Counted from the stretch's first letter, positions 34,809 to 56,476 are shown. The stretch: DNA of 64,000 bases from an uncultured Elusimicrobia bacterium (GCA_903917735.1 CAIXBR010000123.1:3883-67882); one strand, 5' to 3'. Numbers and translations are program-made. The notes: generated by a model from the sequence alone, not told the origin.

Positions 34809-35080
34809 CTGCAGGAAACATAAGTGAGGCTATCGCCTGATTTTCCGGAGAATCTCCCCTTTTCCTTCGCTGAATTTTGCCGGGTTCCCCCTCGTCCGGC
34901 GGTTTGCCGGGCATGCGTATCCAGCTGGCATTGTTCATCGGGCGGGCCGCAGTTTTGCAGTGCTACAGGGGCAGGTTTGGACTATGGAAAATCGGCGGGC
35001 AACCCCAGGCAGGTTAAGAGCCGCATTAGCTCTTTATCATTGAGAATAACAGCCACCGGCTTTATTTCTCTTTTGCATTT
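34809..35080 (-). mobile_element. IS91-family 3'-end relic, copy C (long form, internally deleted)
   Basis: Outer end CTGCAGGAAACATAAG. Minus strand encodes KCKREIKPVAVILNDKEL.. Lacks the TATAAT block and part of the tail. Confidence 0.65.
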
Positions 35081-36786: not shown

Positions 36787-37194
36787 CTGTAGGAAATATA
36801 AGAGCGGTTATTGCCTGTTATTTTCTTTTTTTTCGGAGAACCGCCCCTTTTTCTTCGCCTGAAATTTGTCGAAAACTTCCCTTACCGCTATAATAACAAA
36901 AAGCGGGGCTTTTCTTTGAAATTTTGCCGAGTCCCCCCGCGCCCGGCGGTTGCCGGGCGTATCGGGCGGTTAGTGGTTGGGTCAGTCGTCAGCCGGGGCG
37001 GGGTCTATTGCTTCGTATAAGTCGCCTTTGGGGTCCGGCTGGCTGTCTTCGTCTGGCGGGCCGCAGGTTTGCGACGCTTTTGCGTCAGGCTTTAACTTCG
37101 GGAAATCAGCGGGCAGGCCCAGGTGGGTTAAAAGCCGCACAAGTTCTTTATCATTGAGAATAATAGCGGCCGGCTTCATTTCCAGTTTACATTT
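36787..37194 (-). mobile_element. IS91-family 3'-end relic, copy E (long form, best preserved)
   Basis: Minus strand encodes KCKLEMKPAAIILNDKELVRLLTHLGLPADFPKLKPDAKASQTCGPPDEDSQPDPKGDLYEAIDPAPADD then stop, then the hairpin GCCCGGC-AACC-GCCGGGC, an AT-rich block, and the outer end ..CCTACAG. Confidence 0.85.
36866..36894 (+). promoter_or_regulatory. Conserved sigma70-like motif inside the relic end (reads antisense to the transposase relic)
   Basis: TTGTCG-17 nt-TATAAT. The same spacing is found in copy B (24974-25002, TTGCTA), copy I (49252-49280, TTGCTA), copy D (TTGCAA/TTATAA), and copy H on the opposite strand (48071-48099). Confidence 0.45.
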
Positions 37195-37196
37195 GA

Positions 37197-37850
37197 TTAT
37201 GGAACCTGTGGGGGCTCGTGACTAGCAGCTGATGGCAAGATTTTGGGTGTTGTATTCTTATCAACCTGCTCCCCTATCCCGGGATGGTCTTTTTTCAACT
37301 GCGCCATTTCGGCTTTATTGGCGTCCCGCAGTGCTTTGAGAGATGCGCTTTGGCCGGCTTTCCTGGCTTTCATGGCCCTGCGTATTTCCGACTGAGGCTT
37401 CGACTTCAGACTTTCCCTGAGCACCGCTATTTCCTCTGCCTGACTGTTTTTTAATTCGGTGATAGCAGCTCTGTGCTTTTTCCTGAGTTCATAAACGGTG
37501 CTTATTTTCTCCTGCCGGGCCGGCTCCTGCTTAACCGGGGTTCCGGACAACTCAGGCGGGAGCAAAGCACCGGCCGGCTCAGACTTAATCGGAGCTCCTG
37601 CCGGCTCGGACTTGAGGAGGGTTCCGTTCGGCTCTGACTTGACCGGGGCTCCGGCCAGTTCGGGTTTGAGCAGCGCTCCGGACGGCTCAGACTTAAGCGA
37701 GGTTCCGGCAGGCTCGGATTTGAGCGGGGTTCCGGGCTGATCGGACTGTACCGGGGTGGTGGATATTGCAGGCCTGCTCTCCTGGGTGTTTTGCGCGCAG
37801 GAAGGCGCAGCGAACCAGACCGCTGTCATTACCGCAAATATCGTTTTCAC
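37197..37850 (-). CDS. Secreted protein with 9-aa tandem repeats and a basic helical C-terminal half
   Basis: Signal peptide MKTIFAVMTAVWFAAPSCA, eight LKSEPAG(A/T)x-type units, then an ELKNSQAEEIAVLRESLK.. helical region. Confidence 0.65.
   Translation of the reverse strand: MKTIFAVMTAVWFAAPSCAQNTQESRPAISTTPVQSDQPGTPLKSEPAGTSLKSEPSGALLKPELAGAPVKSEPNGTLLKSEPAGAPIKSEPAGALLPPELSGTPVKQEPARQEKISTVYELRKKHRAAITELKNSQAEEIAVLRESLKSKPQSEIRRAMKARKAGQSASLKALRDANKAEMAQLKKDHPGIGEQVDKNTTPKILPSAASHEPPQVP
37533..37748 (-). repeat. 27-nt in-frame tandem repeat (about 8 units)
   Basis: Repeated GGCTC(A/G)GACTT(A/G)A..GG..C(C/T)(G/C)C units encoding (L/V)KSEP(A/S/N)G(A/T)(L/P/S). Confidence 0.7.
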
Positions 37851-38321: not shown

Positions 38322-38626
38322 CCGCCTTTATAATAACTAGCCTATGGCCATGCCGTAACAAGAGCTATGTGCATCAGACAGCCAAAAATCGCGGTTTTTC
38401 TTTAAAATTTTGCTGAGTTCCCCCGCGCCCGGCGGTAGCCGGGCGTATCGGGCGGTTAGTGGTTGGGTCAGTCGTCAGCCGGGGCGGGGTCTATTGCTTC
38501 GTATAAGTCGCCTTTCGGGTCCGGCTGGCAGTCTTCGTCCGGCGGGCCGCAGGTGTGTTCATATAACGTCGCTTGCGGGGCCGGTTTAAACTTCGGGAAT
38601 TCAGCAGGCAAGCCTAAGTGAGTTAA
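38322..38626 (-). mobile_element. IS91-family 3'-end relic, copy G (short form, carries mini-repeat m2)
   Basis: Minus strand encodes LTHLGLPAEFPKFKPAPQATLYEHTCGPPDEDCQPDPKGDLYEAIDPAPADD then stop. Hairpin GCCCGGC-TACC-GCCGGGC. Ends at GAGTTAA (38626). Confidence 0.8.
38338..38383 (+). repeat. 46-nt hairpin mini-repeat, copy m2
   Basis: TAGCCTATGGCCATGCCGTAACAAGAGCTATGTGCATCAGACAGCC. It interrupts TATAATAAC | AAAAATCGCGG, which is contiguous in copies B, E and I. Confidence 0.65.
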
Positions 38627-38715
38627 CTATGTCGAAGGGTTTTTCTTAAATCTGGCTCCCCCGATTGAATGATTTCCGCAACTTTATGAAAGAAGAAACG
38701 GATTTATTTCAGACC

Positions 38716-38740
38716 TCAATTGTGCAGTATACACAATTGA
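38716..38740. promoter_or_regulatory. Perfect inverted repeat, candidate operator
   Basis: TCAATTGTG-CAGTATA-CACAATTGA (9-bp arms) in an AT-rich spacer ~640 nt upstream of the giant gene. Confidence 0.35.
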
Positions 38741-39375
38741 AGCACTAATATTCATTTGGCCGGATTTTCACGGGAGAAGGTCAATATTTATCCGTAACCG
38801 TATACAAACGTTTACGCCCTCTAATAACTTTTGCCGAAGGTTTTTAACGCCGTTGAACAGCTTTTCCGTGAAGGGAAGGCCGTTCGGCGCCCTGGGCGCG
38901 GGCCAGCGGTTGACGCTGGCGTTCAAGTTCGGGAAAGAACTTGAAGGTTCCGGCCGGAAGCCCGCAGACTCCCCTGTTACCCGCGGGAAGCGCGCGGAGC
39001 ATGAAAAGGCCGCGCCGCTCCCCTTGCGAAAGAGAGCGGAAAAACGCTGCTCGAACAGCAGCTGGAAGAAAAGTTCCTGACGTGGTAAAAGTTCGCCTTT
39101 CCTGGCGGCCGTTCCGACCCCCATTAAGCAACAATCATCTGAGAATGTAAGAGTTCCTCCGCGGAACTCCTTCTGTACTCAACTTTCCCTTGAAAATTAC
39201 CGGTTTATCACGTATAACATCCGATAATATTGTTTGGTAAATGTTTGATGATTTGATGGTTTTTCCCTGATTTTTATCCGACACATTACAAACGGTAAAA
39301 AAATAAGGGTGTTCTTGTGGCCTCGGGAATTAACAGAGGTTGATTTGCGGCGTTTTACGGCGCGGCATCCGGCCT

Positions 39376-42300
39376 ATGAAAAGGATAATATTGTTTTTAG
39401 CGGCAACGGTACTCCTGTCGGCGGCGGTTTCCGCCGAACCGGAGTTGTTCCCGTTCAAGAACGGCATCCGGCCGCTCACCCCCGATCAGGAAGCGTACTT
39501 GAAGGACAGGGTGGTCCGGATAAATTCCATCAAGCCCAACAGACTGGCTCTGGCCAGGAGCGCCGCCGCGTCCGCGCCCCAGGCCGGACTGCCGCCCTCC
39601 GTCAGCAACTGGCAATACCTTCCCAAGGTCGGCAACCAGGGCGGCCAGGGCAGTTGCGCAGCGTGGTCCACCTGTTACTATTACAAAACCTACCAGGAAG
39701 CCAAGGAGCATGGCTGGAATAACCCCGATTACGGCGTGAATCCGGACCATGTCATGAGTCCGGCGTTCTGTTACAATCTTGTCAATGGTGGGGAGGACGG
39801 CGGGAGCATGCCCTCCTGGATAATGCAGATGATAGCGGATCACGGCGACGCTACCTGGCAGGATATGCCGTACGACCAGGGGGACTATCTCTCATGGCCG
39901 TCCCAGGCGGCATGGAAGAACGCCCTCCTCTACCGGGCGCAGAGCGCGGCGACCATAGATATTACCACCGATGCGGGAATAACGGCGCTTAAACAGCAAC
40001 TGGCCAACGGGGATATAGCCGTCATCGCGTTCAACGTCACGGCCAGCTTCGACCATTATCCCAGCGACTATCCCGGGGTCAACAGCCAGGTGCTTTATGA
40101 TAATTCCGGCGGCTCGCGCGGCGGGCATGCTGTGACGGTGATGGGCTATGACGACACCAAATCCTATGTGGGCGGTAACGGCGTTACCCAGCACGGCGCG
40201 TTCAAGATAGTAAATTCCTGGGGCAATACATGGGGAATAACCGACCCCGACATCGGGACCAAGGGATTTGTGTGGATGGCTTACGCATACCTGAAGAGCA
40301 AGACCGGCTACGGGCAGGCCTGGACTATGGTCGACAGGACGGGATATCAGCCTACCGTCTACGGAACCTTCGGCCTGGAGCATCCCAGCCGCGGGGACCT
40401 TAACGTTTATTTCCTTGGCGGCAGCAATAACGACAGTCCGGATTGGTCTTTTAACGCGCTGCCCAGCATGGGCGGGACGCATGCAGTTGCGCAGAAGGTC
40501 ACCGTGGACCTGTCATTGTACAGTCCCGATCTTAATGGTAAATTCTGGCTTAAGGTCAGCGATTCCCTGTCCAATTCCGCCACGGGACAGATAACATACA
40601 TGGGCGTTCAGCAGGCCGGTGGTCAGGAAGAAGTCTCGGCGGACACCCCGAAAAATACGCAGAACGGCAGCTATGTCTATGTACAGCTTTCCAACGGCGG
40701 AGGGGTAGGGTATACCGCGCTCGATCCTTCGTTCACCCAGGTTAACATTACAAGCCTCACGGTGACCTGGGACCTGATACCCGGCGCTAATTATACGGTA
40801 GTGCTGAGTTCGGACAGTTATTACACCGGCATTCTGTCTTCCGGGACCCAGGCCCAGAATTCCATCAACTTCCCCGGCCTTTCGGCAGGCGCAAGATATT
40901 ATTTCCAGGTCAAGATATCGACCGAATCGGACATGGGTTATTTTTACAACCGTTCTTCGGCCAGGACCCTGGTGGGGACATGGTCGGCCGCGACTGCGAT
41001 GTCAACGCCGCGGGGTTATCATGCCGCCATACTGCTGCCGGACGGCCGGGTGCTTGTTGCCGGCGGCTCCAGCGGCTCCTATCTCTCCTCCGCGGAAGTG
41101 TACGATCCGGGCGCAGGCACCTGGTCAAGCGCGGGTTCGATGGCGGCCGCGCGGACCTTTCCCGGCGCCGTGCTGCTGTCCGACGGCCGGGTGCTTGTCT
41201 CCGGAGGTTCCGGCTCCGGCGGTTTTCTTTCTTCCTCCGAACTCTACGACCCGGAGACCAATGCCTGGTCCGGCGCGGGGTCCATGTCCTCTCCGCGCGG
41301 GCGCCACACCGCCACGTTGCTACCTAACGGTAAGGTGCTTGTGACCGGCGGTTATTATTATGATAGTGAATGGCATTATCTTTCTTCCGCCGAGTTCTAC
41401 GACCCGAAAACCAATGTCTGGTCGAGCGCGGGCTCCATGTTTTCTGAGCGGGTATTTCATACCGCCACGCTTTTGCCTAACGGCAAAGTGCTGGTGGCAG
41501 GCGGGGATAACGGCTATCTCCCTCTCGCTTCGGCCGAGCTCTACGATCCCGTCACCAACAGCTGGTCAGCCGCTGCCGCGCCGCTATATGCGCGATATGC
41601 CCACACCGCCACGCTGCTGCCCGGCGGCAAAGTTCTGGTCGCGGGCGGGGGGGGAGGCGGATCCACCTCAGAACTCTACGATTCGAATACGAACAGCTGG
41701 TCGAGCGGGGGAGACATGCTGTCCTCGGGCCGTCAGTCTTCCACTTCGGCATTGCTGCCCGACGGCAAGGTTCTTGTGGCCGGCGGCCAGGGAGGCGGTT
41801 CCTCGACCGAGCTCTACGATCCGAAGACTAACGGCTGGTCGAGCGCTGGTTCGATGCTGTCTTCGGAGCGGGCCTACGGCACAGCCTCGCTGCTGCCCGA
41901 CGGCAGGGTTCTTGTGGCGGGCGGATACAGCAGCGGCTACCTTTCCTCCACCGAACTCTTCTCCCCGGCCGATCTGGTTTTGACAAAGTTGGCCCCGGTC
42001 TTTGCACAGGTGGGGGTTTCAAACCTTTCTGTTACATGGACGCCCGTTCAGGGCGCTAATTACACGGCTGTGCTTTCTTCGGACGCGAGTTTCATGAACC
42101 TTGCATCTTCAGCGACCCAGAGCGGAAATTCGGCCGGCTTTACGGGGCTTTCGCCCGCTACGCGGTATTTCTTCGAGGTCAAGCTTTCCACCGAGACCGA
42201 ATGGGCCTATGCGGGGAACACGATCTCCACCGCGACGCCTTCCCCCGCGGTCCTGTCCTGGACCGGAGAAACTAATTATGCCGCCGACGGACTGGACCCC

Positions 42301-45300
42301 GAAACCGGAACATCCACGATGACATTCACATACCGGGTTAAATTTACCGACGCCAACGGCAAAGCCCCGGCGGCCGGTTATCCGAAGCTCCATATACGGA
42401 AAGGCGGCGATGAAATAGTCGGCAGCCCGTTCACGATGGATCACATCAGCGGCGGTCCCTTAGCCGGCGCGATATATGAGTATTCGCGAAAGTTAAGCGC
42501 GGGAACGGATTATTCCTGCTATTTCGAGGCTTATGATTCCGATAATAACAGGGCCGCGGGGCCGCCCGTCTCGGCGGTGGACTCCCCGGACGTCTATGAC
42601 GGCGTCTGGGCGGTTGCGAATCATATGTCGTTGGCGCGAAGCGCCCATGCCGCAGTGCTGCTGCCCGGGGGCCGCGTGCTTATGGCCGGCGGTTCCAACG
42701 GATCTTACATTTCCTCCGCGGAGCTCTATGACCCGAACACTAACGCTTGGTCAAGCGCGGGTTCCATGTCATCAGCGCGCACCTATCACAGCGCCACGCT
42801 GCTGTCAGGCGGCAAAGTGCTGGTAGTAGGAGGGGCAGGAGGCGGCTCTTCTTCCGAGCTCTACGACCCGGACGCGAACAGCTGGTCGGGCACGGGCTCT
42901 ATGGCGTCGGCGCGGTATTATCACACCGCCACGATGCTGCCCAGCGGAAAGGTGCTTGTGGCGGGCGGCTCAGGCAGCGGCTGTCTTTCCTCGGCCGAGC
43001 TCTACGATCCCAATACGAACACCTGGTCAAGCGCGGGTTCCATGTCGGCGGCCAGGGAGTTCCATGCCGCCGTGCTGCTGTCTAACGGCAAGGTACTGGT
43101 GACAGGGGGGTATAACGGCAGTTCATATCTTTCCTCGGCCGACCTCTACGACCCTAATACGAACAGTTGGTCGAGCGCGGGTCCGATGTCTTATTCGCGC
43201 GGGTCGCACACCGCTACCTTGCTTCCCGGCGGGAAAGTGCTTATCGCGGGCGGAGGCTCCACGGCCGAGCTTTACGATCCGAACACCAATACCTGGTCGA
43301 GTGCGGGCTCTATGTACGTGACGCGCTACGACCACACGGCCACGCTGTTGCCCGACGGCAGGGTGCTCGTCGCCGGCGGTTCGGGCAGCGGTTATCTTTC
43401 CTCGACCGAGCTTTACGACCCGAACACGAATACCTGGTCAAACGCTGGGGCCATGTCGGCGGCACGATATTATCACACCGCCACCCTTCTGCCGTCCGGC
43501 AAGGCGCTGGTTGCCGGCGGTTATTATTATGAAAACAACACGTGGCATTATCTCTCATCCGCCGAACTCTACACTCCTGTCGGTTTAATGTTGACAAAGG
43601 TGACCCCGTCCCTTACGCAGGTGGGATTTTCGAGCTTTACCGTGACATGGACGCCGGTCGCCGGCGCGAATTACACGGCGGTCCTTTCCACAGACGCGAA
43701 TTTCATAAGCCTTGATTCTTCTGTGACCCAAGGCGGGAATTCAGCGACCTTTACGGGTCTCGCGCCGCTGACGCGGTATTTCTTTGAGGTCAAACTCTCC
43801 ACTGAAGCGGAATGGGCTTACTTCGGAAACAGAATATCCGCCGCGACGCCTTCTCCCGCGACCGCGCTGCATCCGCAATTCTTCCAGGTTTACGCGGCGA
43901 GCGCGACCGTGACCTGGGATGCTGTTCCCGGTTCCGCTTATACGGTGGTCCTGGGTTCCGATAGTTTCTACACGAATATCGTGTCGTCCGCGGGCCAGGC
44001 CGCGAACACAAAGACCTTTACGGGACTCAGTGCGGGAACAAGCTGGTATTTTGAGGTCAAGCTTTCTTCCGAAACCAATGCGGCTTACGCCTTCAATAGG
44101 ATATCCACGGCCACTCTTGCGGTCATGCCCTATCTCTCCGCCGGGCCGGTGTTTACGCATCTCTGCGCCAGCAGCATGACCGTGAACTGGTCTTCCGGAA
44201 CGGCCGCAATCGGTTTTGATCCTGCCGGCACGCTTTACACAGTGGAGCTCTCTACGGACGCCGGCTTCCAACCGGTGCTGGCTTCATCGCAAACTTACGG
44301 CCTGAGCGGAGTATTTGAGGATCTATCCCCTAACACATCCTATTATGCCCGTGTGCAGGCAATGAACGGCGGCGGTACGGGTACGGATTTCACCGCATTG
44401 GGCGCAACAGCCACTCTGGCGGTCATGCCCGGCCGGCCGGCGGGCGATGTGTACACGAAAATCTTCGCCGGCAGTATGACGGTCAACTGGTCTTCGGGGA
44501 CTGCTGCGACCGGCTACGATCCGGCCGGCACGCGTTACAAAGTGGAATTTTCAACATCAGCCGGATTCATCCCGATCTGCGGTTCCTCGCTGACATACGC
44601 TTTGAGCGCGGGCCTTACCGGTCTCGAGCCGGATACCATCTACTATTCAAGGATCGCGGCGGTAAACCGCTCAGGTGAGCCCTCTCTCTGGCTCGTCGCT
44701 CCGTCCACGGCCACCCTTCCCAACCCGCCGGCGGACGATAGTTCCCCGGTGAGGGACATGTCGGCCGGCAGTTTTGAATATCGATGGTCGGCCAACGACA
44801 ATCCTTCCGGAACGCTCTACGTGGCCCAGCTCTCGACCGCCCCGGGTTTTTCCGGGAGCGGCGATCGGCCGACCGCGACTGCCGGGACTTCCGCCAATTT
44901 CGCGGGTTTGACCGGCAATACGGCTTATTATGCGAGGGCGTATGCCATAGGCCGCGCAGGGCACATAACTCAGTTCAATACCGTAGTTTCCACTGTCACG
45001 CCGCCCCAGGCCCCCGCCGCCGGGGTTTTCAGCGTAGCCGGCTCGTCCGCGCTAACCGCCAACTGGGGGTTGGGCCTTAACAACGCCGCCGGGTTGACCT
45101 ATCTGGCACAGCTTTCCGTTTCGAATGTTTTTGCGGACGTCCTCGCGTCATCCGCTACGGCGGGAGTCTCGGCGGTATTCGGGCTTGGCGGACAGGGAGC
45201 CCCGCTCACTCCCGACACTTCCTACTACGTGCGCGTACTGGCGCTCGGTTATAGCGGTGCAGGGAACTTTTCGGACCTCGGGGGGATAGCAACGCTGGCT

Positions 45301-46794
45301 AACGCGCCGTCCCGGATGGAGGCTGTCGCCATAACCTCAGTGTCGGTGAGCCTGGACTGGTTGCCCAACGGCAATCCCGAGCCCGGCGCGGCATATGAAC
45401 TATGGCGGGATGTTGCCCCGGGCTTTACCGCGCCGCTGAAGACCAGCGTCTCCGGAAGCGGGTGTCTTGCCGGCGGTTTGTCCCCGCTGACGACCTATTA
45501 TTTCAAGGTTCGCGCGGTCAACAAGGCGGGGGTATATACGGATTTCGACTCGGATCTGTCCGTTCTGACTCACCCTCCCGCGCCGGGAGCAATCGTAATG
45601 AACGGAACGGCGGCGGGAGTGTCGTCCGTCAGATGGGCCTGGAACGACGCCGGAGCTGGAACGGCATACAGGGTCGTGAGCGCCGCGGGAGCGGACCTGT
45701 CGGGAGAGCTTGAGGCGGGGAGTACGTTCTGGGTCGAACCGCAGCTCTCCACTAATACCGCTTACTCCCGCATGGTGGTGGCGTCCAATCTTTCCGGGAT
45801 CTCCACTTCCGCTGCCGTTACCCGTTTTACGCTGGCTGCGGCGCCGGCCGGTTCCGGATTCCTCGAGGTCTGGCACAGCTCGGCCTCCATGAAATGGTCT
45901 GAGAACGGCGATCCGCCCGGAACCTCTTTCGAGGCGCAATACTGGACAATGGGCGGTTCAACGTCTTCAGTTGTGGCCGGTTCTACCTGTGCCGTGCTGA
46001 CCGGCCTGGCGCAGGAGACCACGGTCTATGCGCGGGTCAGGGCTCTTAACGGAGACGGCATTCCTTCCGCGTACGACGGGACGGCTTCCACCTTTATTCC
46101 GAACACGATGGTCGTTATCCAGCCCGGCAGCGGCTATACGCTTGTTTACGATCAAATATCATTGAATATCGCTCCCGACACTTTTAATGAGACCGTGAAT
46201 CTCCTTGTGAAACGGCCCGCCCAGGCACCGCCTGACAGCGGCGGACTTGCGGGTTTTTCGGCAAGTGTCCTGGTGGACATCTCAGCGCTGAACCCGTTAA
46301 CGCAAAAGCTCCAACCGTTAAAGGAAGTGATAGTCGCGGCGGATTACCGGAACATGGACCTGGAGGGAGCCGATGAAGGCACCTTGGTCATGGCGACTTA
46401 TAATGAAAGCCGCGCCGTCTGGGTCCCGCTTCCCTCGGTAAGGGACAGGAACGCTAAAACGGTGACGGCGAGGACCGGTCATTTCTCCCTGTTCCAGCTC
46501 ATGCATTCGTTCGCCCCGGAGAGCATTTCGGGGATAACGGTCGGGCCGAACCCTCTGAGGCCGGTAAGGAACCCGGGGCAAGCGTTCACGTTCAGGCATC
46601 TGCCTTCCGGCGCGAGCGTTAAAATTTACACTTGTCTCGGAGAACTGCTGTACGAAACGGCCGCTGACACGTCCGGCATGGCCGTCTGGGACGGAAAAAA
46701 CAAGGCGGGCAGGCTGGTCGGGAGCGATGTTTATCTGGCGCTGTTAAAATGGAAAGGCGAGAGAAAAGTCCTTAAACTGGTCATGGAAAAATGA
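39376..46794 (+). CDS. Giant secreted protein: C1 (papain-like) peptidase + two Kelch propeller blocks + many Fn3-like domains + T9SS-type C-terminal domain
   Basis: Start set at MKRIILFLAATVLLSAAVSAE (signal peptide). C1 triad context: QGGQGSCAAWS, GGHAVTVMGYDD, IVNSWGNTWG. More than 20 Kelch units (LLPDGRVLVAGG..ELYDP.TN.WS.AGSM). CTD GPNPLRP..VKIYTCLGELL..DVYLALL..LKLVMEK. Confidence 0.85.
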   Translation: MKRIILFLAATVLLSAAVSAEPELFPFKNGIRPLTPDQEAYLKDRVVRINSIKPNRLALARSAAASAPQAGLPPSVSNWQYLPKVGNQGGQGSCAAWSTCYYYKTYQEAKEHGWNNPDYGVNPDHVMSPAFCYNLVNGGEDGGSMPSWIMQMIADHGDATWQDMPYDQGDYLSWPSQAAWKNALLYRAQSAATIDITTDAGITALKQQLANGDIAVIAFNVTASFDHYPSDYPGVNSQVLYDNSGGSRGGHAVTVMGYDDTKSYVGGNGVTQHGAFKIVNSWGNTWGITDPDIGTKGFVWMAYAYLKSKTGYGQAWTMVDRTGYQPTVYGTFGLEHPSRGDLNVYFLGGSNNDSPDWSFNALPSMGGTHAVAQKVTVDLSLYSPDLNGKFWLKVSDSLSNSATGQITYMGVQQAGGQEEVSADTPKNTQNGSYVYVQLSNGGGVGYTALDPSFTQVNITSLTVTWDLIPGANYTVVLSSDSYYTGILSSGTQAQNSINFPGLSAGARYYFQVKISTESDMGYFYNRSSARTLVGTWSAATAMSTPRGYHAAILLPDGRVLVAGGSSGSYLSSAEVYDPGAGTWSSAGSMAAARTFPGAVLLSDGRVLVSGGSGSGGFLSSSELYDPETNAWSGAGSMSSPRGRHTATLLPNGKVLVTGGYYYDSEWHYLSSAEFYDPKTNVWSSAGSMFSERVFHTATLLPNGKVLVAGGDNGYLPLASAELYDPVTNSWSAAAAPLYARYAHTATLLPGGKVLVAGGGGGGSTSELYDSNTNSWSSGGDMLSSGRQSSTSALLPDGKVLVAGGQGGGSSTELYDPKTNGWSSAGSMLSSERAYGTASLLPDGRVLVAGGYSSGYLSSTELFSPADLVLTKLAPVFAQVGVSNLSVTWTPVQGANYTAVLSSDASFMNLASSATQSGNSAGFTGLSPATRYFFEVKLSTETEWAYAGNTISTATPSPAVLSWTGETNYAADGLDPETGTSTMTFTYRVKFTDANGKAPAAGYPKLHIRKGGDEIVGSPFTMDHISGGPLAGAIYEYSRKLSAGTDYSCYFEAYDSDNNRAAGPPVSAVDSPDVYDGVWAVANHMSLARSAHAAVLLPGGRVLMAGGSNGSYISSAELYDPNTNAWSSAGSMSSARTYHSATLLSGGKVLVVGGAGGGSSSELYDPDANSWSGTGSMASARYYHTATMLPSGKVLVAGGSGSGCLSSAELYDPNTNTWSSAGSMSAAREFHAAVLLSNGKVLVTGGYNGSSYLSSADLYDPNTNSWSSAGPMSYSRGSHTATLLPGGKVLIAGGGSTAELYDPNTNTWSSAGSMYVTRYDHTATLLPDGRVLVAGGSGSGYLSSTELYDPNTNTWSNAGAMSAARYYHTATLLPSGKALVAGGYYYENNTWHYLSSAELYTPVGLMLTKVTPSLTQVGFSSFTVTWTPVAGANYTAVLSTDANFISLDSSVTQGGNSATFTGLAPLTRYFFEVKLSTEAEWAYFGNRISAATPSPATALHPQFFQVYAASATVTWDAVPGSAYTVVLGSDSFYTNIVSSAGQAANTKTFTGLSAGTSWYFEVKLSSETNAAYAFNRISTATLAVMPYLSAGPVFTHLCASSMTVNWSSGTAAIGFDPAGTLYTVELSTDAGFQPVLASSQTYGLSGVFEDLSPNTSYYARVQAMNGGGTGTDFTALGATATLAVMPGRPAGDVYTKIFAGSMTVNWSSGTAATGYDPAGTRYKVEFSTSAGFIPICGSSLTYALSAGLTGLEPDTIYYSRIAAVNRSGEPSLWLVAPSTATLPNPPADDSSPVRDMSAGSFEYRWSANDNPSGTLYVAQLSTAPGFSGSGDRPTATAGTSANFAGLTGNTAYYARAYAIGRAGHITQFNTVVSTVTPPQAPAAGVFSVAGSSALTANWGLGLNNAAGLTYLAQLSVSNVFADVLASSATAGVSAVFGLGGQGAPLTPDTSYYVRVLALGYSGAGNFSDLGGIATLANAPSRMEAVAITSVSVSLDWLPNGNPEPGAAYELWRDVAPGFTAPLKTSVSGSGCLAGGLSPLTTYYFKVRAVNKAGVYTDFDSDLSVLTHPPAPGAIVMNGTAAGVSSVRWAWNDAGAGTAYRVVSAAGADLSGELEAGSTFWVEPQLSTNTAYSRMVVASNLSGISTSAAVTRFTLAAAPAGSGFLEVWHSSASMKWSENGDPPGTSFEAQYWTMGGSTSSVVAGSTCAVLTGLAQETTVYARVRALNGDGIPSAYDGTASTFIPNTMVVIQPGSGYTLVYDQISLNIAPDTFNETVNLLVKRPAQAPPDSGGLAGFSASVLVDISALNPLTQKLQPLKEVIVAADYRNMDLEGADEGTLVMATYNESRAVWVPLPSVRDRNAKTVTARTGHFSLFQLMHSFAPESISGITVGPNPLRPVRNPGQAFTFRHLPSGASVKIYTCLGELLYETAADTSGMAVWDGKNKAGRLVGSDVYLALLKWKGERKVLKLVMEK
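40975..42245 (+). repeat. Intragenic segmental duplication, copy 1 (Kelch block + Fn3)
   Basis: Ends ..LTKLAPVFAQVGVSNLSVTWTPVQGANYTAVLSSDASF..RYFFEVKLSTETEWAY..TPSPA. Colinear with 42600-43860. Confidence 0.7.
42600..43860 (+). repeat. Intragenic segmental duplication, copy 2 (Kelch block + Fn3)
   Basis: Ends ..LTKVTPSLTQVGFSSFTVTWTPVAGANYTAVLSTDANF..RYFFEVKLSTEAEWAY..TPSPA. Confidence 0.7.
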
Positions 46795-47828
46795 AAACGG
46801 GCAAATTAGTGGATTGGCGCTATGTCCTGGTCTTTCCGGCGATCTTCGCCGTAATATGTCCGTTACGCTCCTTCGCGGGTTTTGACGCCGGCGACAAAGG
46901 CACATCCGCGGCGCAATTCCTTAAATTGGGCGCCGGGGCGAGGGCGGCCGGAATGGGGGAGGCATATTCGGCGGTCTGCGCCGACTCCGGAGCCGTTTAC
47001 TGGAATCCGGGAGGCCTCGGCTTTCTGAACGGCGTTTCCGGGACCTTCACGCACGCGGACCTGTTCGGCGAGCTGAACTATGAGTACCTGGGGTACGCGC
47101 AGTCCTTCGGGAACGCCGGAACCGCCGGGCTGGGCGTCCAGTACCTGTCGTCCGGGCGCATACCCGAAACGGACGCCGCCGGTTTTGAGACCGGAGCCGC
47201 TATGGCGCCGGTGCAGTACGCCGTCTCCCTTGCTTATGCGCGCAAGGTCGGCGGCTTCGGGATAGGCGCGGCAGCCAAGTATATAAGGTCCCGGCTCTCG
47301 GCGACCGCCTCCGCCTTAGCCGCCGACGCCGGCGTTCTAAGCCCTGCCCTGATGGATAATAAGCTCCGGCTGGCGTTCGTGGTCCAGAACGCGGGCGGCG
47401 GATTGAAATACGGGCAAAGCACCGATCCCCTGCCTTTAAATTTGAAACTGGGCGGCGCTTTCTCTTTTTCGGACAAGCTGATCTTCGGCCTCGATGTTAA
47501 TTCCCCGCGCGATAACAGGATCTATGCCGGCGCCGGCGCTGAATACCTGCTCCGCTATTCCGGGGTCTCTTTCGCCCTCCGCCTCGGTTATAACAGCAGG
47601 ACTTCTGGAGACATCGACGGGATGACCGGAGTTTCTACGGGGCTCGGGGTTGTGTTCCACGACATGGTCCTGGACTACGCTTTTATTCCGTTCGGTCCCC
47701 TCGGTTTCGCGCACAGGATCTCGCTGAGCTTCAAATTAGGCGGAAAGGCTCCGTTCCCGGCCCCCGCAGCGCTGAGAAAACCAGGCTCTCCGGTCCTTGG
47801 CGGGGCGGACGTGCAAAAATCGCGGTGA
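46791..47828 (+). CDS. PorV-like outer-membrane barrel protein
   Basis: ATGA overlap with the giant gene. Signal peptide, AAGMGEAYSAVCADSGAVYWNPGGLGF block, ends ..VLDYAFIPFGPLGFAHRISLSFKLG plus a short tail. Confidence 0.7.
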   Translation: MKTGKLVDWRYVLVFPAIFAVICPLRSFAGFDAGDKGTSAAQFLKLGAGARAAGMGEAYSAVCADSGAVYWNPGGLGFLNGVSGTFTHADLFGELNYEYLGYAQSFGNAGTAGLGVQYLSSGRIPETDAAGFETGAAMAPVQYAVSLAYARKVGGFGIGAAAKYIRSRLSATASALAADAGVLSPALMDNKLRLAFVVQNAGGGLKYGQSTDPLPLNLKLGGAFSFSDKLIFGLDVNSPRDNRIYAGAGAEYLLRYSGVSFALRLGYNSRTSGDIDGMTGVSTGLGVVFHDMVLDYAFIPFGPLGFAHRISLSFKLGGKAPFPAPAALRKPGSPVLGGADVQKSR

Positions 47829-47833
47829 CGAGC

Positions 47834-48137
47834 TTAACCCACCTGGGCCTACCCGCTGATTTCCCGAAGTTCAAGCCTGCCGCAAAAGCGTCGCAAACCT
47901 GCGGCCTGTCAGACGAAGACTGCCAGCCGGACCCGAAAGGCGACTTATACGAAGCAATAGACCCCGCCCCGGCTGACGACTGACCCAACCACTAACCGCC
48001 CGATACGCCCGGCAACCGCCGGGCGCGGGGGGACTCGGCAAAATCTCAAAGAAAAGCCCTGCTTTTTGTTATTATAGCGGTAGGGCGCGGTTTTAGCAGA
48101 GGATAACAGGCGATAATCGCACTTATGCTGCCTACAG
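47834..48137 (+). mobile_element. IS91-family 3'-end relic, copy H (short form, opposite orientation)
   Basis: Plus strand encodes LTHLGLPADFPKFKPAAKASQTCGLSDEDCQPDPKGDLYEAIDPAPADD then stop, hairpin, and outer end CCTACAG at 48131-48137. Starts 5 nt after the PorV-like stop. Confidence 0.85.
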
Positions 48138-48985: not shown

Positions 48986-49536
48986 AAAAGGATACCCCTG
49001 TATTTGTGGCGCCTTTCCGCTAGTACGCTACAACAATGGCTATCGGCATAACAGCTAGCGGCACCTGTATTCCTGAACTTCAGATATTCAATTGTAGCGT
49101 CACAACCCGGATTTGTCAAGGGCCGTAGGACCCCGTAGGACGATTGTCACGAAAAGGTAAAGCGTCAAAATATGTAGGCAACATAAAGACGGTTATCGCC
49201 TGTTATCCTCTGTTTTTCCCGGAGAACCGCACCTTTTTCTTCGCTTGAAAGTTGCTAAAACCGCGCCCTACCGCTATAATAACAAAAAGTGGGGCTTTTC
49301 TTTGAAATTTTACCGAGTCCCCCCCGCGCCCGGCGGTTGCCGGGCGTGTCGGGCGGTTAGTGGTTGGGTCAGTCGTCAGCCGGGGCGGGGTCTATTGCTT
49401 CGTATAAGTTGCTTTTTGGGTCCGGCTGGCAGTCTTCGTCGGGCGGGCCGCAGGTTTGCGGCGCTTTTGCGGCAGGCTTGAACTTCGGGAAATCAGCGGG
49501 CAGCCCCAGATGGGTTAAGAGACGCACAAGTTCCTT

Positions 49537-49582
49537 GGCCGTTTGACGAGCATAGCTCTTGATACGGCACTGGCATAGCCTT
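49537..49582 (-). repeat. 46-nt hairpin mini-repeat, copy m4
   Basis: AAGGCTATGCCAGTGCCGTATCAAGAGCTATGCTCGTCAAACGGCC, inserted between ILND and KELVRLL codons that are contiguous in copies C and E. Confidence 0.75.
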
Positions 49583-50673: not shown

Positions 50674-51693
50674 TTACGCGAAAGCCAGCGCCTCATCGAA
50701 CACTTCCTGGTCTTTCAGCACGTGGTAGCAGGCGCGCGCCAGTTTATGCGCCACCGCCTTGGCCGCCACTATCTTGTTCGTCTTGGTCATCTTGCGTTGA
50801 TAGAAATTCCTGATACGCTCGTTATACCGTATGGCAAAATGTGCAGCTTCAATAAACGCCCAAGCCAGGTATTTATTCCCGTTCTTCCGATTGCCTTCGC
50901 CTTTCTTTTTGCCGTTGCTCCAGCGGGAACTGCCCACACAGCTCGCATAGGAAGCGAAGTGCCCGACTTTCTTAAAGCGCTTCATGTCGCCGGCTTCGTA
51001 CATTATCGTCATGCCGAGGACCTCCCAGATCCCGTCGATCGTTAGGATCTTCCTGAATTCCGGTTTTAACCTGGCCTGCTTAAGAACCACTTTTTCAAGC
51101 GCAACAACCTGTTCGTCCAGGCAACGCATAACTGATAGATTGCTTTTTACTGCCAGCTCAAGCACGCTGTTCCCGCGGCAGTACTGGCCGATTGTCTCGT
51201 CATCCAGCTTCCGGACACCGTCCGTGTTTATTTTTTTGCCGCTGTTCCGGCTCACCAGGCCTTGTATGCTCAGTATCTGCGTGGTGCGGCAGCGCACCAA
51301 CTGGGCGCGCTTGCGCAGCAGGTCCCGCACGGCCCGGTCTTCCTTCGGCTGTATGTAGCCTGTCGGCAATACGCCCAGCCGCAACAGGTGCGCCAAGTGC
51401 CGGGCATCGTGTTCGTCCCCGGTGTATTTAAGCCCTTCATAAACTTTCACCGCCGCAGTGTTCACAAGCTTTACATCGTAGCCCTCGTCCATCAGCCCAT
51501 CGACCAGCCAGTACCAGTTATACGTCGATTCCACAGCTATCGCCTGGATCCTTTTCTTGTACGGCGCCAGTCCGGCCAATATGGTCTTCAGATCATTGGG
51601 GTAGCGTTCTTCAAGCACAACCCAGTCCTTTTCGTTCAGTATTACCAGCACGCTGTTATTGGAATGCAGGTCTATTGCCGAGTATAATTTCAT
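50674..51693 (-). CDS. IS110-family (DEDD) transposase
   Basis: Start set at MKLYSAIDLHSNN after AAGGAGGGG. Blocks AIDLH, AVESTYNWYWL, and C-terminal FASYASCVGS..GNKYLAWAFIEAAHFAIR are typical of the family. Confidence 0.85.
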   Translation of the reverse strand: MKLYSAIDLHSNNSVLVILNEKDWVVLEERYPNDLKTILAGLAPYKKRIQAIAVESTYNWYWLVDGLMDEGYDVKLVNTAAVKVYEGLKYTGDEHDARHLAHLLRLGVLPTGYIQPKEDRAVRDLLRKRAQLVRCRTTQILSIQGLVSRNSGKKINTDGVRKLDDETIGQYCRGNSVLELAVKSNLSVMRCLDEQVVALEKVVLKQARLKPEFRKILTIDGIWEVLGMTIMYEAGDMKRFKKVGHFASYASCVGSSRWSNGKKKGEGNRKNGNKYLAWAFIEAAHFAIRYNERIRNFYQRKMTKTNKIVAAKAVAHKLARACYHVLKDQEVFDEALAFA

Positions 51694-51783
51694 ACAAGTC
51701 CCCTCCTTAGCTGTTTTGTAATTGCTTCTAGACAAAGCAATGTTACAAACTGCGGGAGGGGACCCTCTATATGATTATCGGGC

Positions 51784-55118: not shown

Positions 55119-55586
55119 CTATAGCTTCCGGAGCACATAATACTCCGGCGTCCGGTGCCTTATGGTGTAGTCGCCGCTCTTCCATTCGAAGAACATGTAC
55201 GTACGGCCTTTTATCTCCGTTATCGTATAGCGGGACGCGGTCTTGTCCCCGTTATGGGTAACCACGCCTTTGCTCCACCTGAACCACGGAGCGCCCCCGG
55301 GGGAGAAAGGCATTACGGCCATGGCGCCGTTCGGCAGGAACTTGAAGCCGCCCAGGTAGAGGTTTTCCTGGAAGCTCTTATACCCCGGGACGAAGTCCCC
55401 GGGCATCCTTACGAAATCAACGCTAACCCATTCGCCCAGCACGGCGGGGTCGTTCACGAAGGGCAGGTTTATATCGTCCACCAGCCTGCCGTTAACTTCT
55501 GTGGTGTTTATTTTTACATCTTCGGCGCATGCCAGCGTGCCGAAACCCGCAAGAACCGCTATAACCGCAAGTATTCCAAGTTTCAT
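55119..55586 (-). CDS. Secreted single-domain paralog of 55694-56476 (unknown family)
   Basis: Signal peptide. Shares DDINLPFVNDP..W.SVDFV..P..F.PG, GDKTAS.Y.I.EI.G..YMFFEWKSGDY.IR and YYVLRK with both halves of the neighbour. Confidence 0.65.
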   Translation of the reverse strand: MKLGILAVIAVLAGFGTLACAEDVKINTTEVNGRLVDDINLPFVNDPAVLGEWVSVDFVRMPGDFVPGYKSFQENLYLGGFKFLPNGAMAVMPFSPGGAPWFRWSKGVVTHNGDKTASRYTITEIKGRTYMFFEWKSGDYTIRHRTPEYYVLRKL

Positions 55587-55614
55587 AAAGCCTCCTTGTT
55601 ATTCGCTTCCAACT

Positions 55615-55645
55615 GTTATTACGCACAGGCCCCGAAAGTATTACA
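55615..55645 (-). promoter_or_regulatory. Candidate ECF-type promoter
   Basis: Minus strand TGTAAT-16 nt-CGTAATAAC, followed by an AAGGAGG SD and the ATG at 55586. Near-identical motif at 57301-57331. Confidence 0.45.
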
Positions 55646-55649
55646 AAAG

Positions 55650-55677
55650 AAAAAGCCCCCGCGCAGGGGGCCTTTTC
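55650..55677 (-). terminator. Rho-independent terminator
   Basis: AAAAAGCCCCC-GCGCA-GGGGGCCTTTT after the stop at 55694. Confidence 0.75.
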
Positions 55678-55693
55678 TTGCGGCAGGATAATT

Positions 55694-56476
55694 TTATTTT
55701 TTCTTCAGCACGTAATAGAAGGGCTTCGCGCCGCGCAGCACGTAATCGCCGCTCTTCCACTCGAAGAACATATAGCGGGCGCCCTTTATTTCCTTTATCA
55801 CATAGGCGCTGGCCGTCTTGTCGCCGTGGTGCATTACCACGCCCTTGGTCCAAGTCCACCAGGGCTTGCCGCCCTTGCCCTTAGGCAGGAACACCATTTC
55901 CTTAAGATAGAGGTCGTCGCCCCAGGCTTTGGCCGCCGGGTCGAACCGCTCCGGGCTCGCCACGAAATCCACGCTTTCCCATTTCCCTATCACGGCTGGG
56001 TCGTTCACGAACGGCAAATCTATGTTGTCGCGCCGTATAGCTGCCTCTTTCCTGAGCACATAATAATGCGGCTTCTGGTGCCGTATAGAATAGTCGCCGC
56101 TCTTCCACTCAAAGAACATATACTTCGCGCCGCTTATTTCCTTTATTTCATAGCGGCTGGCTGTTTTGTCGCCATGGTGCATCACCACACCTTTGGTCCA
56201 GGTAAGCCAGCCGTTAGGACTTTTGCCGTCCGGCAGGAAAACCAGTTCTTTCAGATAGAGTTCCCCACCAAAACCCTGGCGGCCCGGGGTAAAATCCCCC
56301 GGCTTTTCCACATAATCCACAGCGCGCCAGGTGCCGATCACTCCGGCATCATCGACAAAAGGCAGGCTGATATCGTCCACCGTACGTCCGTCCTTGTCGA
56401 TATAACTTTTTATTTCCTGTCCCAGCGCGGGCCCCGCGGCCAGCAGCGCGGCCAGTATTATGATCTTTATTTTCAT
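55694..56476 (-). CDS. Secreted protein with two tandem copies of the same unknown domain
   Basis: Start set at MKIKIIILAALLAAGPALGQ (signal peptide, GAGGGAAGG upstream). Two ~120-aa repeats, each ending YYVL(R/K)K. Confidence 0.65.
   Translation of the reverse strand: MKIKIIILAALLAAGPALGQEIKSYIDKDGRTVDDISLPFVDDAGVIGTWRAVDYVEKPGDFTPGRQGFGGELYLKELVFLPDGKSPNGWLTWTKGVVMHHGDKTASRYEIKEISGAKYMFFEWKSGDYSIRHQKPHYYVLRKEAAIRRDNIDLPFVNDPAVIGKWESVDFVASPERFDPAAKAWGDDLYLKEMVFLPKGKGGKPWWTWTKGVVMHHGDKTASAYVIKEIKGARYMFFEWKSGDYVLRGAKPFYYVLKKK

Follow-up and report, generated by a model that had tools for sequence, protein, structure and literature searches.

How might a bacterium expose a very large, many-domained protease at its surface? 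The question is raised by a giant gene in a 64-kb window (the whole stretch of DNA analyzed; GCA_903917735.1 CAIXBR010000123.1:3883-67882) from an uncultured Elusimicrobia bacterium. A housekeeping protein encoded in the window clusters at 90% identity or above with proteins from Elusimicrobiota and Elusimicrobiales MAGs. In a search of GTDB species representatives, the closest match was from Aerophobetes, at 55% identity. An earlier note on this DNA described a papain-like peptidase borne on a long Fn3 stalk with two Kelch propellers, encoded next to a barrel. Sequence profiles, structural models and analogy lead us to propose, with moderate confidence, a surface-display function for this pair of genes, in which a protease/adhesin would be tethered to the barrel through its C-terminal domain (CTD) and would be releasable at an HFS site.

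Architecture of the giant protein

The reading frame is uninterrupted from 39376 to 46794 (+), as the earlier note had it, and encodes 2472 aa counted from the ATG, with a predicted mass of 255 kDa. A TTG at 39340 is another possible start and would give 2484 aa; the N termini of homologs (MKRKLLFLAA...) favor the ATG. The signal peptide can be read straight from the sequence, as had been claimed. Scans found no sigma-70-like promoter upstream of the giant gene and no terminator 3' of the barrel gene, and an Rfam scan of 34-52 kb gave no match. The features of the two genes are as follows.

39376..39435 (+): Sec signal peptide, aa 1-20, MKRIILFLAATVLLSAAVSA followed by EPE (sequence reading; homologs begin alike)
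39436..39600 (+): conserved N-terminal extension, aa 21-75, with the motif G-x-R-P-x-T-P-x-E (seen in alignments A1 and A2 of the family)
39601..40341 (+): papain-family (C1) cysteine peptidase domain (PF00112, conservation, Foldseek)
39637, 39655, 40126 and 40213 (+): predicted C1 catalytic residues Gln88, Cys94, His251 and Asn280, respectively; also Trp282
40342..40710 (+): family-specific post-C1 beta-sandwich domain, aa 323-445 (aligned in most of 22 homologs)
40714..40968 (+): Fn3 module 1 (iterated internal HMM, E 6e-33)
40981..41973 (+): Kelch beta-propeller 1, seven blades, aa 536-866 (Kelch Pfam families; blade motifs)
41983..42237 (+): Fn3 module 2, end of the first copy of the duplicated block (internal HMM)
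42247..42600 (+): 118-aa insert domain between the duplicated blocks, kept at 61-63% identity in relatives P0027 and P0028
42607..43584 (+): Kelch beta-propeller 2, seven blades, aa 1078-1403 (Pfam; 64% aa identity to block 1)
43594..43848 (+): Fn3 module 3, end of the second copy of the duplicated block
43861..46098 (+): Fn3 modules 4-11, eight in tandem, forming the stalk (internal HMM, E 4e-23 to 2e-35 each)
46102..46530 (+): pre-CTD beta-sandwich of ~140 aa with an HFS motif, candidate MAIN/GAIN/ZU5-type domain
46537..46791 (+): CTD, predicted T9SS-like Ig/FlgD-type beta-sandwich (NCBIfam, Foldseek)
46791..47828 (+): gene for a PorV/PorQ-family outer-membrane beta-barrel, 345 aa (NF033709)

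The earlier note had overlooked the post-C1 beta-domain, the 118-aa insert domain (which has no Pfam match at E<=1) and the pre-CTD HFS domain.

By sequence and structural model, the N-terminal domain is a C1 peptidase with a complete catalytic set and predicted activity. The Cys, His and Asn/Trp motifs lie where they had been reported (QGSCAAWS at aa 91, GGHAVTVMGYDD at aa 249 and NSWG at aa 280), and Peptidase_C1 (PF00112) matches aa 82-287 with 38.0 bits against a cutoff of 20.7 (E 2.5e-9). The catalytic residues align throughout the family: among 23 sequences (22 homologs), H251 and N280 are invariant, and conservation is 90% or higher at Q88, C94 and W282. In alignment A2, the invariant residues are Q62, C68, H225 and N254. 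An AF2 model of the region has a papain fold (pTM 0.80), for which Foldseek returns Lpg2622 (E 6e-11), cathepsin B and Der p 1 (TMt 0.75) at E 6e-11 to 8e-7. Pfam detects no I29 propeptide in the giant protein, which has instead the conserved extension of ~55 aa, possibly a short pro-region and modeled by AF2 as two short helices. The absence of I29 does not exclude the protein from C1, because some bacterial members also lack it.

Among solved structures, the best structure and sequence matches to this domain are Lpg2622 of Legionella pneumophila (6A0N) and xylellain of Xylella fastidiosa (3OIS), which have the papain fold and the Cys/His region in common with it at just ~16-17% identity. Both are small single-domain secreted enzymes, whereas the family of the giant protein adds a conserved beta-sandwich and the giant protein itself has >2,000 extra residues. 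This beta-sandwich is 48-73% identical among close relatives (P0026-P0030 and P0032) and all-beta in the AF2 model, and its Foldseek matches are weak and PLAT/C2-like (E about 1e-2). The combination of C1 and beta-sandwich occurs at 192 loci in species-representative genomes, spread over many candidate phyla, and can also make up a short secreted enzyme by itself, in proteins of about 490-550 aa.

Beyond the protease, Kelch_1 to Kelch_6 match at E 3e-89 to 3e-57, with 7+7 blade motifs, and Pfam fn3 matches at E 1.3e-39. The two propellers agree with the Kelch runs previously placed at 40975-41965 and 42600-43575. Each propeller forms with the following Fn3 module a duplicated block (432 aa at 64% identity, or 1254 nt at 69%, with an offset of 1611 nt). 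The earlier estimate of a ~1.25-kb intragenic duplication was right in size. The duplicated Fn3 modules, described as near-identical, are in fact 73% identical, and they are followed by 8 further modules (11 in total) rather than about a dozen. A function for the propellers as radical copper oxidases (galactose/glyoxal oxidase, GlxA) was considered and rejected: NF052501 reaches 165 bits, below its cutoff of 800, and the match to Glyoxal_oxid_N covers Kelch repeats only, with no DUF1929-type Cu-ligand C-terminal domain present.

A coding sequence this strongly repetitive could in principle reflect collapse or expansion of Kelch repeats during assembly, an outcome that the earlier note had named as fatal to its reading. 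Because the copies are 64% identical in amino acids and 69% in nucleotides, the duplication is by sequence divergence old, and not an assembly artefact. The copies differ at 31% of nucleotides and contain no long exact repeats. An identical ORF recurs on 8 or more contigs, and 13 contigs carry the barrel gene next to it; the contigs stem from six or more assemblies, named in two styles, and the identity is 99.9-100%. P0027 and P0028 have the same two-propeller layout and insert domain. The probability of an artefact is negligible, and we exclude it on these three grounds.

The long repeat stalk and propellers are adhesin-like, and papain-like and ZU5 domains serve as releasing peptidases in polymorphic toxins (PMC3482391). 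The protein might thus be mainly an adhesin or a toxin-delivery fiber, with the C1 domain acting solely in self-processing or as a toxin against neighbors, as in polymorphic toxin systems. Its layout argues against such a function: the peptidase is N-terminal rather than a toxin tip at the C terminus, RHS/FilH repeats are lacking, and the next gene encodes a barrel and not a small immunity-like protein. The occurrence of the C1 and post-C1 module in stand-alone enzymes also counts against it, and we consider a fiber that serves mainly for adhesion or toxin delivery very unlikely.

The C-terminal region and its private barrel

Modeling predicts for the CTD a fold that resembles the CTDs of the T9SS proteins PorZ and PorU. 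In isolation, its only NCBIfam match is the PorZ CTD region (36.8 bits, E 1.6e-9). The model, with per-block pLDDT of 77-92, gives Foldseek matches to PorZ (5m11, E 1e-5), to PorU (6za2, E 9e-5) and to the translocon-bound T9SS substrate CTDs 8glk_D and 8gl8_D (TMt 0.70-0.73, prob 1.00). Against the curated models of T9SS cargo, the domain does not reach the type A cutoff (TIGR04183/PF18962) and scores 16.7 bits with the type B model CHU_C, for which the cutoff is 27. The CTD of a neighboring M6 protease passes type A TIGR04183, with 24.3 bits against a cutoff of 23.

The operon of giant gene and barrel proposed in the earlier note is borne out. The ATG of the barrel gene overlaps the TGA of the giant gene as ATGA, and NF033709 places the product in the PorV/PorQ family with 177.5 bits against a cutoff of 90. 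The equivalog models all score below cutoff (PorQ 102.9/220, PorV 82.2/250, PorV2 60.7/325). Elsewhere in the window, a PorV-like ORF comes after each of two further CTD proteases (M6 and S41), and NF033709 matches the barrel at 27869-28813 with 98.5 bits against the cutoff of 90. The private barrel of each cargo in the window is only 26% identical to the next barrel.

The unit of CTD protein and private barrel is conserved. An ectodomain, an HxS domain in parentheses in our scheme, and a CTD, together with a private PorV-like barrel, are found in 10 of the 11 relatives that could be checked. A PorV/UPF0164/PorP-like barrel gene lies directly downstream of P0026, P0027, P0028, P0030 and P0005, the last having the only barrel partner that matches PorP_SprF; a barrel gene is likewise directly downstream at three Aerophobetes loci and of two non-protease module proteins (P0091 and P0093). 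Most of the cargo-barrel junctions in relatives are 4-nt overlaps. A CTD-less C1 homolog (L008) has no such barrel gene in its whole 21-kb locus. That the gene pair is one case of a general cassette had been overlooked. The earlier note did not recognize the domain combination as a described family, and indeed no named family carries the architecture, which is common to five unnamed metagenomic relatives.

PorV-family barrels are FadL-like, and all three proteases in the window (C1, M6 and S41) precede a barrel ORF. The pairs could therefore combine a protease with an uptake channel that imports hydrophobic peptides or other products of the protease and has no role in anchoring. However, the barrel tracks the CTD and not the enzyme: non-protease Fn3/SBBP proteins with an HxS domain and CTD have a barrel too, whereas the CTD-less C1 homolog is without one. 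Since the barrel also scores as a member of the PorV/PorQ family, a pure uptake channel appears highly improbable.

The domain preceding the CTD carries the motif His2369-Phe2370-Ser2371 (nt 46480-46488) and is probably a self-cleaving domain of the MAIN/GAIN/ZU5 type, with cleavage predicted from conservation, modeling and analogy. HFS is invariant in four of four close homologs and in alignments A4 and A5. At E<=1e-3 the domain has 4377 homologous representatives, and among the best 148 of these, 142 have H-x-S/T (HFS in 82, HLS in 54, HLT in 4 and another H-x-S in 2) and 6 have none. In 141 of the same best 148 of 4377, the protein ends 70-110 aa past the domain, leaving a tail of ~90 aa, the length of a CTD. 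The AF2 model, in which HFS (134-136) occupies a beta-turn between strands 127-132 and 137-143 (block pLDDT about 75-86), is of moderate confidence, with per-block pLDDT of 51-86 over aa 1-150 and below 70 in the first 80 residues. Foldseek matches it to ankyrin ZU5 (E 0.03), whose TMq of 0.37-0.40 exceeds that of every other match, and lists no GAIN domain in the top 50.

Pfam and NCBIfam sequence profiles give no match to the HFS domain. A sequence link to solved structures was also sought and rejected, the PDB profile search returning chance matches only, and a profile search with 22 diverse HFS domains in a word-indexed protein database found 5 proteins with uninformative names. Comparison is provided by the MAIN domains, with whose published motif, cleavage position and order signal peptide-ectodomains-MAIN-anchor (bioRxiv 10.64898/2026.05.12.724683) the giant protein agrees in its motif, putative cleavage position and domain order, and by the proposal that ZU5 and GPS form one autoproteolytic superfamily that is also present in bacterial surface proteins (Zhang et al. 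2012, PMC3482391).

The cassette lies between copies of a dispersed repeat:

38383..38557 (no strand): left-hand copy of a dispersed repeat family, one arm of the inverted repeat around the cassette, 93% complementary to 47894-48068
47833..48085 (no strand): right repeat copy, inverted, immediately 3' of the barrel stop codon (complementarity)

The right copy is 96% complementary to 36880-37131 and 93% to 38383-38557, and the left arm is the junction of an inverted variant in contig L002. This variant may reflect a true inversion polymorphism of 9.3 kb or a switch during assembly at a repeat core that is identical over 105 nt. The copies carry an ORF tail of 45-90 codons only ('...LTHLGLPADFP...ADD' and stop), which we take to resemble IS91 C termini, and contain no Y2 (HUH) transposase or recognizable fragment of one. 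The earlier note had seen IS91 relics bracketing the operon. The flanking dispersed repeats are confirmed; the IS91 identity is not, as three peptides encoded by the repeats had no NCBIfam match at E<=10 and tblastn against plasmids gave one irrelevant match. An exact scan of JGI metagenomes for the 45-nt core found no match. The related suggestion that the operon may be accessory is supported in part, by the repeats, relics of other barrels and the inverted variant, but not by a confirmed IS91 identity.

Proposed display, release and the T9SS alternative

In the display cassette that we favor, the protein would be exported by Sec and would then pass the outer membrane, after which the cognate barrel would bind the CTD. 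This hold would resemble that of PorQ on PorZ, of PorV on PorU and of PorP/SprF-like barrels on type B CTD proteins. The protein may stand tens of nanometers off the surface (a rough estimate, at about 3.5 nm per Fn3) with the C1 protease at its distal tip, and the propellers may serve as ligand-binding modules. The HFS domain would cleave itself between Phe2370 and Ser2371, and the halves would stay non-covalently assembled, as in MAIN/GAIN. Force or ligand binding could then shed the ectodomain, leaving the last strand and the CTD in the barrel. The idea that a protease on a long Fn3/Kelch stalk is a surface degradative or adhesive device, already put forward in the earlier note, gains support from the catalytic tetrad, the papain fold, the T9SS-like CTD and the coupled barrel, from which we infer its function.

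Alternatively, the protein may be ordinary T9SS cargo. A complete T9SS (SprA/Sov, PorKLMN and PorU) would then be encoded elsewhere, a lipid or glycan anchor would take the place of the CTD after its cleavage, and the barrel would be a specialized shuttle. The CTD fold, the similarity to PorZ and PorU and the neighboring M6 protease, whose CTD passes TIGR04183, are consistent with such a route, and Bacteroidota offer documented cases in which the genes of a substrate and its cognate shuttle form a pair, for example PorP/SprF-like barrels for Flavobacterium type B cargo (PMC9143113, PMC12618676). On the other hand, the host belongs to Elusimicrobiota, and T9SS is described in literature abstracts as confined to Bacteroidota/FCB. 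In addition, type A CTDs of Bacteroidota share one generic PorV, whereas the barrels here are private and only 26% identical, and no T9SS core gene lies within the 64-kb window. Ordinary T9SS cargo is on these grounds rather unlikely, if far from implausible.

No T9SS translocon or motor gene is among the genes of the 64-kb window, and we found nothing relevant in the literature on T9SS, PorV or CTDs in Elusimicrobia/Elusimicrobiota. How a protein of 255 kDa whose propellers are folded would cross the outer membrane is left unexplained by the favored display cassette, because the window has no T9SS core gene and T9SS has been placed in Bacteroidota/FCB. A more speculative extension, which we advance tentatively, is that Elusimicrobiota and further lineages outside Bacteroidota, Aerophobetes among them, use a minimal display system of two genes that is independent of the Bacteroidota T9SS. 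Any ectodomain could be joined to a self-cleaving HxS (MAIN/GAIN-like) domain and a CTD, and would be co-translated with a private PorV/PorQ-like barrel to receive and hold this CTD. Proteases and adhesins would in this way be tethered non-covalently, and force or ligand binding could shed them. In the genome, the largest example of that system would be the giant C1-Kelch-Fn3 protein.

Relation to known surface systems

Porphyromonas gingivalis has T9SS cargo, such as the gingipains RgpB and Kgp, that resembles the giant protein: these are cysteine proteases exported by Sec, they contain Ig-like modules and a CTD beta-sandwich, and a PorV-family barrel takes part in their outer-membrane display, as proposed for the giant protein. 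They belong to C25, whereas the giant protein is a C1 enzyme from another phylum, Elusimicrobiota. It further differs in having a private, translationally coupled barrel where gingipains use a generic PorV, an HFS domain ahead of the CTD and a far longer Kelch/Fn3 stalk, and in showing no sign of a PorU sortase or of attachment to A-LPS.

PorZ and PorU keep their CTDs, held by PorQ and PorV. The CTD of the giant protein is nearest PorZ in sequence and PorZ and PorU in predicted fold, and its barrel is from the PorV/PorQ family, yet below both equivalog cutoffs (103/220 and 82/250). PorZ and PorU are components of the secretion system, whereas the giant protein is a predicted enzyme/adhesin whose gene is adjacent to and overlaps that of its barrel. 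This genetic logic, with cargo linked to its own barrel gene, is that of the type B pairs SprB-SprF and PG1035-PorP, in which a PorP/SprF-like barrel anchors or targets its cargo by binding to the CTD (PMC9143113, PMC12618676). In contrast to type B systems, the barrel here is PorV/PorQ and not PorP/SprF, the CTD is nearer type A/PorZ and the host is outside Bacteroidota.

MAIN proteins such as Bacillus subtilis YfkN offer the closest parallel for the HFS motif, which likewise lies in a beta-turn, close to where the beta-sandwich ends (10.64898/2026.05.12.724683). They are similarly large and similarly built from a signal peptide, enzymatic or adhesion domains, an autoproteolytic domain (a candidate one in the giant protein) and a surface anchor. 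The anchors differ: sortase signals, cell-wall-binding domains and SLH in MAIN proteins, a CTD and putative outer-membrane barrel in a diderm here. The terms 'T9SS', 'type IX', 'PorV' and 'C-terminal domain' are absent from the main text of the preprint (10.64898/2026.05.12.724683).

If the display cassette is real, T9SS-type tails and PorV-family barrels would not be confined to the secretion machine of Bacteroidota, and a portable module of cargo plus private barrel would exist in deep-branching uncultured phyla, which would bear on the evolution of T9SS sorting and on how such bacteria expose enzymes. MAIN domains, recently described with sortase, SLH and cell-wall anchors, would be found in diderms with an outer-membrane barrel as their anchor too, and a widespread, unstudied family of C1 plus beta-sandwich proteins would gain a testable function. 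For the organism itself, the presence of three putative surface-protease cassettes within 30 kb suggests that extracellular proteolysis is central to its life.

Architecture of the giant protein

The giant gene (39376-46794, plus strand) is an uninterrupted ORF of 2472 aa counted from its ATG, as the earlier note had described. An alternative in-frame TTG at 39340 yields 2484 aa; the ATG is favored because homologs begin MKRKLLFLAA.... The mature protein has a computed mass of about 256 kDa and pI of 5.2. An identical protein, called as 2472 or 2484 aa, is found on at least eight contigs of public metagenome assemblies. The adjacent barrel gene occurs on 13 contigs, which come from six or more ENA assemblies, and four of these contigs match the window at 99.9-100% identity across 8.9-21 kb. 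An 855-aa SIS-domain housekeeping protein encoded in the window groups, at 90% identity or above, with Elusimicrobiota and Elusimicrobiales MAG proteins, which identifies the host as an uncultured member of the Elusimicrobiota.

The C1-type catalytic set seen in the earlier reading holds up in a profile comparison, Pfam Peptidase_C1 matching aa 82-287 at 38 bits (gathering cutoff 20.7). A query with aa 1-475 returns 24 homologs of 26-55% identity, in whose alignment His251 and Asn280 are invariant and conservation reaches 90% or more at Gln88, Cys94, and Trp282; this conservation marks the catalytic set as genuine and maintained by selection. When aa 27-445 are modeled with AlphaFold2 (pTM 0.80), the model matches Legionella Lpg2622, cathepsin B, and Der p 1 with E values of 6e-11 to 8e-7. 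No I29 propeptide was found in the giant protein, and the C1 domain is preceded by a conserved extension of ~55 aa with the motif G-x-R-P-x-T-P-x-E. The peptidase is followed by a 120-aa beta-sandwich that is alignable in most homologs and bears a weak structural likeness to PLAT/C2-like domains only. This C1 plus beta-sandwich module is widespread (192 loci among GTDB species representatives), with the best matches in Aerophobetes (49-55% identity) and Elusimicrobia (49%), and its C-terminal additions differ, including PKD, VCBS, SLH, dockerin, and T9SS tails.

The two Kelch runs form two seven-bladed propellers (aa 536-866 and 1078-1403). An iterated internal HMM finds 11 Fn3 modules: propeller 1 has one on either side, propeller 2 is followed by one, and the other eight stand in tandem; the long Fn3 stalk proposed earlier is thus present, although with eight further modules rather than about a dozen. 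The propeller plus Fn3 block is duplicated at an offset of 1611 nt (432 aligned residues, 64% identity; 1254 nt, 69%), in agreement with the ~1.25-kb duplication first reported, but its two Fn3 copies, described as near-identical, share 73% identity. Since the copies have diverged to this extent, the duplication is not an assembly collapse or expansion. The blocks are separated by a 118-aa insert domain of no recognised family, and this layout, insert included, recurs in two relatives (P0027 and P0028); three others (P0026, P0029, and P0030) have a single propeller. A reading as GlxA or glyoxal oxidase was rejected, as the matches cover the Kelch repeats only and, at 165 bits, remain under the cutoff of 800. 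The architecture of the giant protein is new and unnamed, and its parts are known ones.

C-terminal tandem and barrel partner

Within the last 230 residues, which the earlier reading had not resolved, the final 85 aa form a T9SS-like C-terminal domain (CTD). Its sole NCBIfam match is the PorZ CTD region (36.8 bits, E 1.6e-9), and it falls below the cutoffs of the curated type A and CHU_C models. Its AlphaFold2 model matches PorZ (5m11, E 1e-5) and PorU (6za2), as well as substrate CTDs inside the T9SS translocon (8glk_D and 8gl8_D, TMt 0.70-0.73).

A beta-sandwich of 140 aa, marked by an invariant Gly-His-Phe-Ser-x-Phe motif (HFS, aa 2369-2371), stands immediately N-terminal to the CTD. With E<=1e-3 as the limit, its profile detects 4,377 representative proteins. 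Among the 148 best of these matches, 142 retain H-x-S/T (HFS in 82, HLS in 54) and 141 end 70-110 residues past the domain (median 90), so the HxS domain and CTD constitute a common C-terminal tandem. The ectodomains it carries are diverse, among them Fn3, SBBP and NHL propellers, TIG, and C1. The largest-coverage fold matches of the HFS domain are to ankyrin ZU5 (E ~0.03, TMq 0.37-0.40), with no direct GAIN match. In MAIN domains, HFS in a turn between two strands is an autoproteolytic site cut between Phe and Ser, the cleaved fragments remain associated, and the domain stands between enzymatic or adhesion domains, which follow a signal peptide, and a surface anchor (Brogan and Rudner, 10.64898/2026.05.12.724683). 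The modeled HFS likewise occupies a strand-strand turn, in a domain placed before a putative surface anchor. ZU5, GPS, and Nup98 autopeptidases have been united in one superfamily, with bacterial surface proteins noted to contain such domains (Zhang et al., PMC3482391). On these precedents, motif and model make the HFS domain a probable self-cleaving module of MAIN/ZU5 type.

The start of the barrel gene (46791-47828) overlaps the stop codon of the giant gene as ATGA. Its product scores 177.5 bits against the PorV/PorQ family model (cutoff 90) and is under cutoff in the PorV, PorQ, and PorV2 equivalog models. A PorV/UPF0164/PorP-like barrel gene lies directly 3' of five relatives (P0005, P0026, P0027, P0028, and P0030) in otherwise unrelated neighborhoods; P0032 was left out because its contig ends there. 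Three Aerophobetes loci likewise have a downstream barrel gene, and two of them, L006 and L007, hold a minimal 548-codon form consisting of signal peptide, C1, beta-sandwich, and CTD. The barrel also accompanies the HxS-CTD module in proteins without the protease (P0091 and P0093, 4-nt overlap), and no PorV-like ORF was found across the 21-kb locus of L008, an Elusimicrobia homolog without a CTD. The pairing of CTD cargo with a barrel is conserved. The barrel next to P0026 (L085 15408-16871, 487 aa) is unusual in that HEAT repeats extend the PorV/UPF0164 barrel at its C-terminus.

The same logic recurs twice more in the window, with M6 and S41 peptidases.

Further CTD cargo and barrel genes in the window
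26190-27872, plus strand: M6 metalloprotease, 560 aa; CTD passes the T9SS type A model
27869-28813, plus strand: PorV/PorQ-family barrel, 314 aa, 98.5 bits; overlaps the M6 gene by ATGA
17980-20454, minus strand: S41 peptidase, 824 aa; HLS (MAIN-like) motif and CTD

The M6-linked barrel and the barrel paired with the giant gene share only 26% identity. Directly after the S41 stop lies the C-terminal half only of a PorV-like barrel (HMM positions 195-319; 17581-20454, minus strand, together with S41), probably a truncated partner gene. Another surface protein (11651-13519, minus strand, 622 aa) ends in an autotransporter beta-domain (type V secretion).

Repeats, with possible inversion and turnover of the cassette

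Copies of a dispersed repeat family (~120-370 nt) stand on both sides of the cassette of giant gene and barrel; each copy has a short ORF tail, '...LTHLGLPADFP...DPAPADD*', and then a GC-rich hairpin.

The seven repeat copies in the window
7031-7148
24936-25179
34882-35080
36828-37194
38383-38635
47833-48085 (inverted)
49214-49581

Two repeat copies that flank the cassette in opposite orientation are 93% complementary over 38383-38557 and 47894-48068. Compared with window positions 38461-48068, the independent contig L002 (ERZ27313102 k141_793401) carries the giant gene and barrel on a 9.3-kb segment that is inverted relative to its flanks, and the junction falls in a 105-nt core identical between both repeat copies; the arrangement reflects a strain-level inversion or else a switch by the assembler. 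Moving with the flank in L002 are a 217-aa ORF without family match (37197-37850, minus strand), which contains a tandem array of 27-nt period (37521-37763; 9-aa repeats), and its 90-aa neighbor.

Some 400 nt 5' of the giant gene, a relic of another barrel remains at 38877-38966 (plus strand): the final beta-strand of a PorV-like protein ('PFGALGAGQRLTLAFKFG'), overlapped by a probably spurious 118-aa minus-strand ORF. It points to the loss of an earlier cassette at this site. On the downstream side, 2.8 kb from the cassette, is an IS110-family transposase gene (DEDD_Tnp_IS110 and Transposase_20; 50674-51735, minus strand). Together with the differing neighborhoods of the relatives, the relic and transposase suggest that cassettes turn over in the region, which lends some support to the earlier view of the operon as accessory. 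The bracketing repeats stand, but HMM and BLAST searches did not confirm them as IS91 relics. Farther on, three-copy direct repeats of 161 and 94 nt at 55126-56377 (63-75% identity) reveal a tandem set of small paralogous genes on the minus strand without Pfam matches.

Proposed tether and outer-membrane passage

Beyond the demonstrated domain order, intact catalytic set, CTD fold, barrel family, and conserved gene pairing, a mechanism can be proposed in which the protease would be held at the distal tip of a stalk whose reach is estimated, from 11 Fn3 modules (each ~3.5 nm long) and other domains, at tens of nm, with the propellers serving as binding modules. As in the PorQ-PorZ, PorV-PorU, and type B CTD/PorP-SprF pairs (PMC9143113, PMC12618676), the private barrel would bind the CTD and keep the giant protein on the outer membrane. 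The HFS domain would render this tether non-covalent, so that the ectodomain could be released. These roles are all inferred by analogy. Overall, what was first seen in the sequence is confirmed with small corrections, and the cell-surface degradative or adhesive machine envisaged at the outset is supported and extended.

Passage across the outer membrane is the weakest link. Either a T9SS encoded elsewhere in the genome carries the giant protein across, as a T9SS-like CTD might imply, or a different route is used; no T9SS core genes lie within the 64-kb window, and the literature, in the portions consulted, places T9SS in Bacteroidota/FCB. More interesting than the giant protein itself is the general cassette, a cargo with a predicted autoproteolytic HxS domain and CTD plus a private PorV/PorQ-like barrel, which occurs in a phylum beyond the known range of T9SS.
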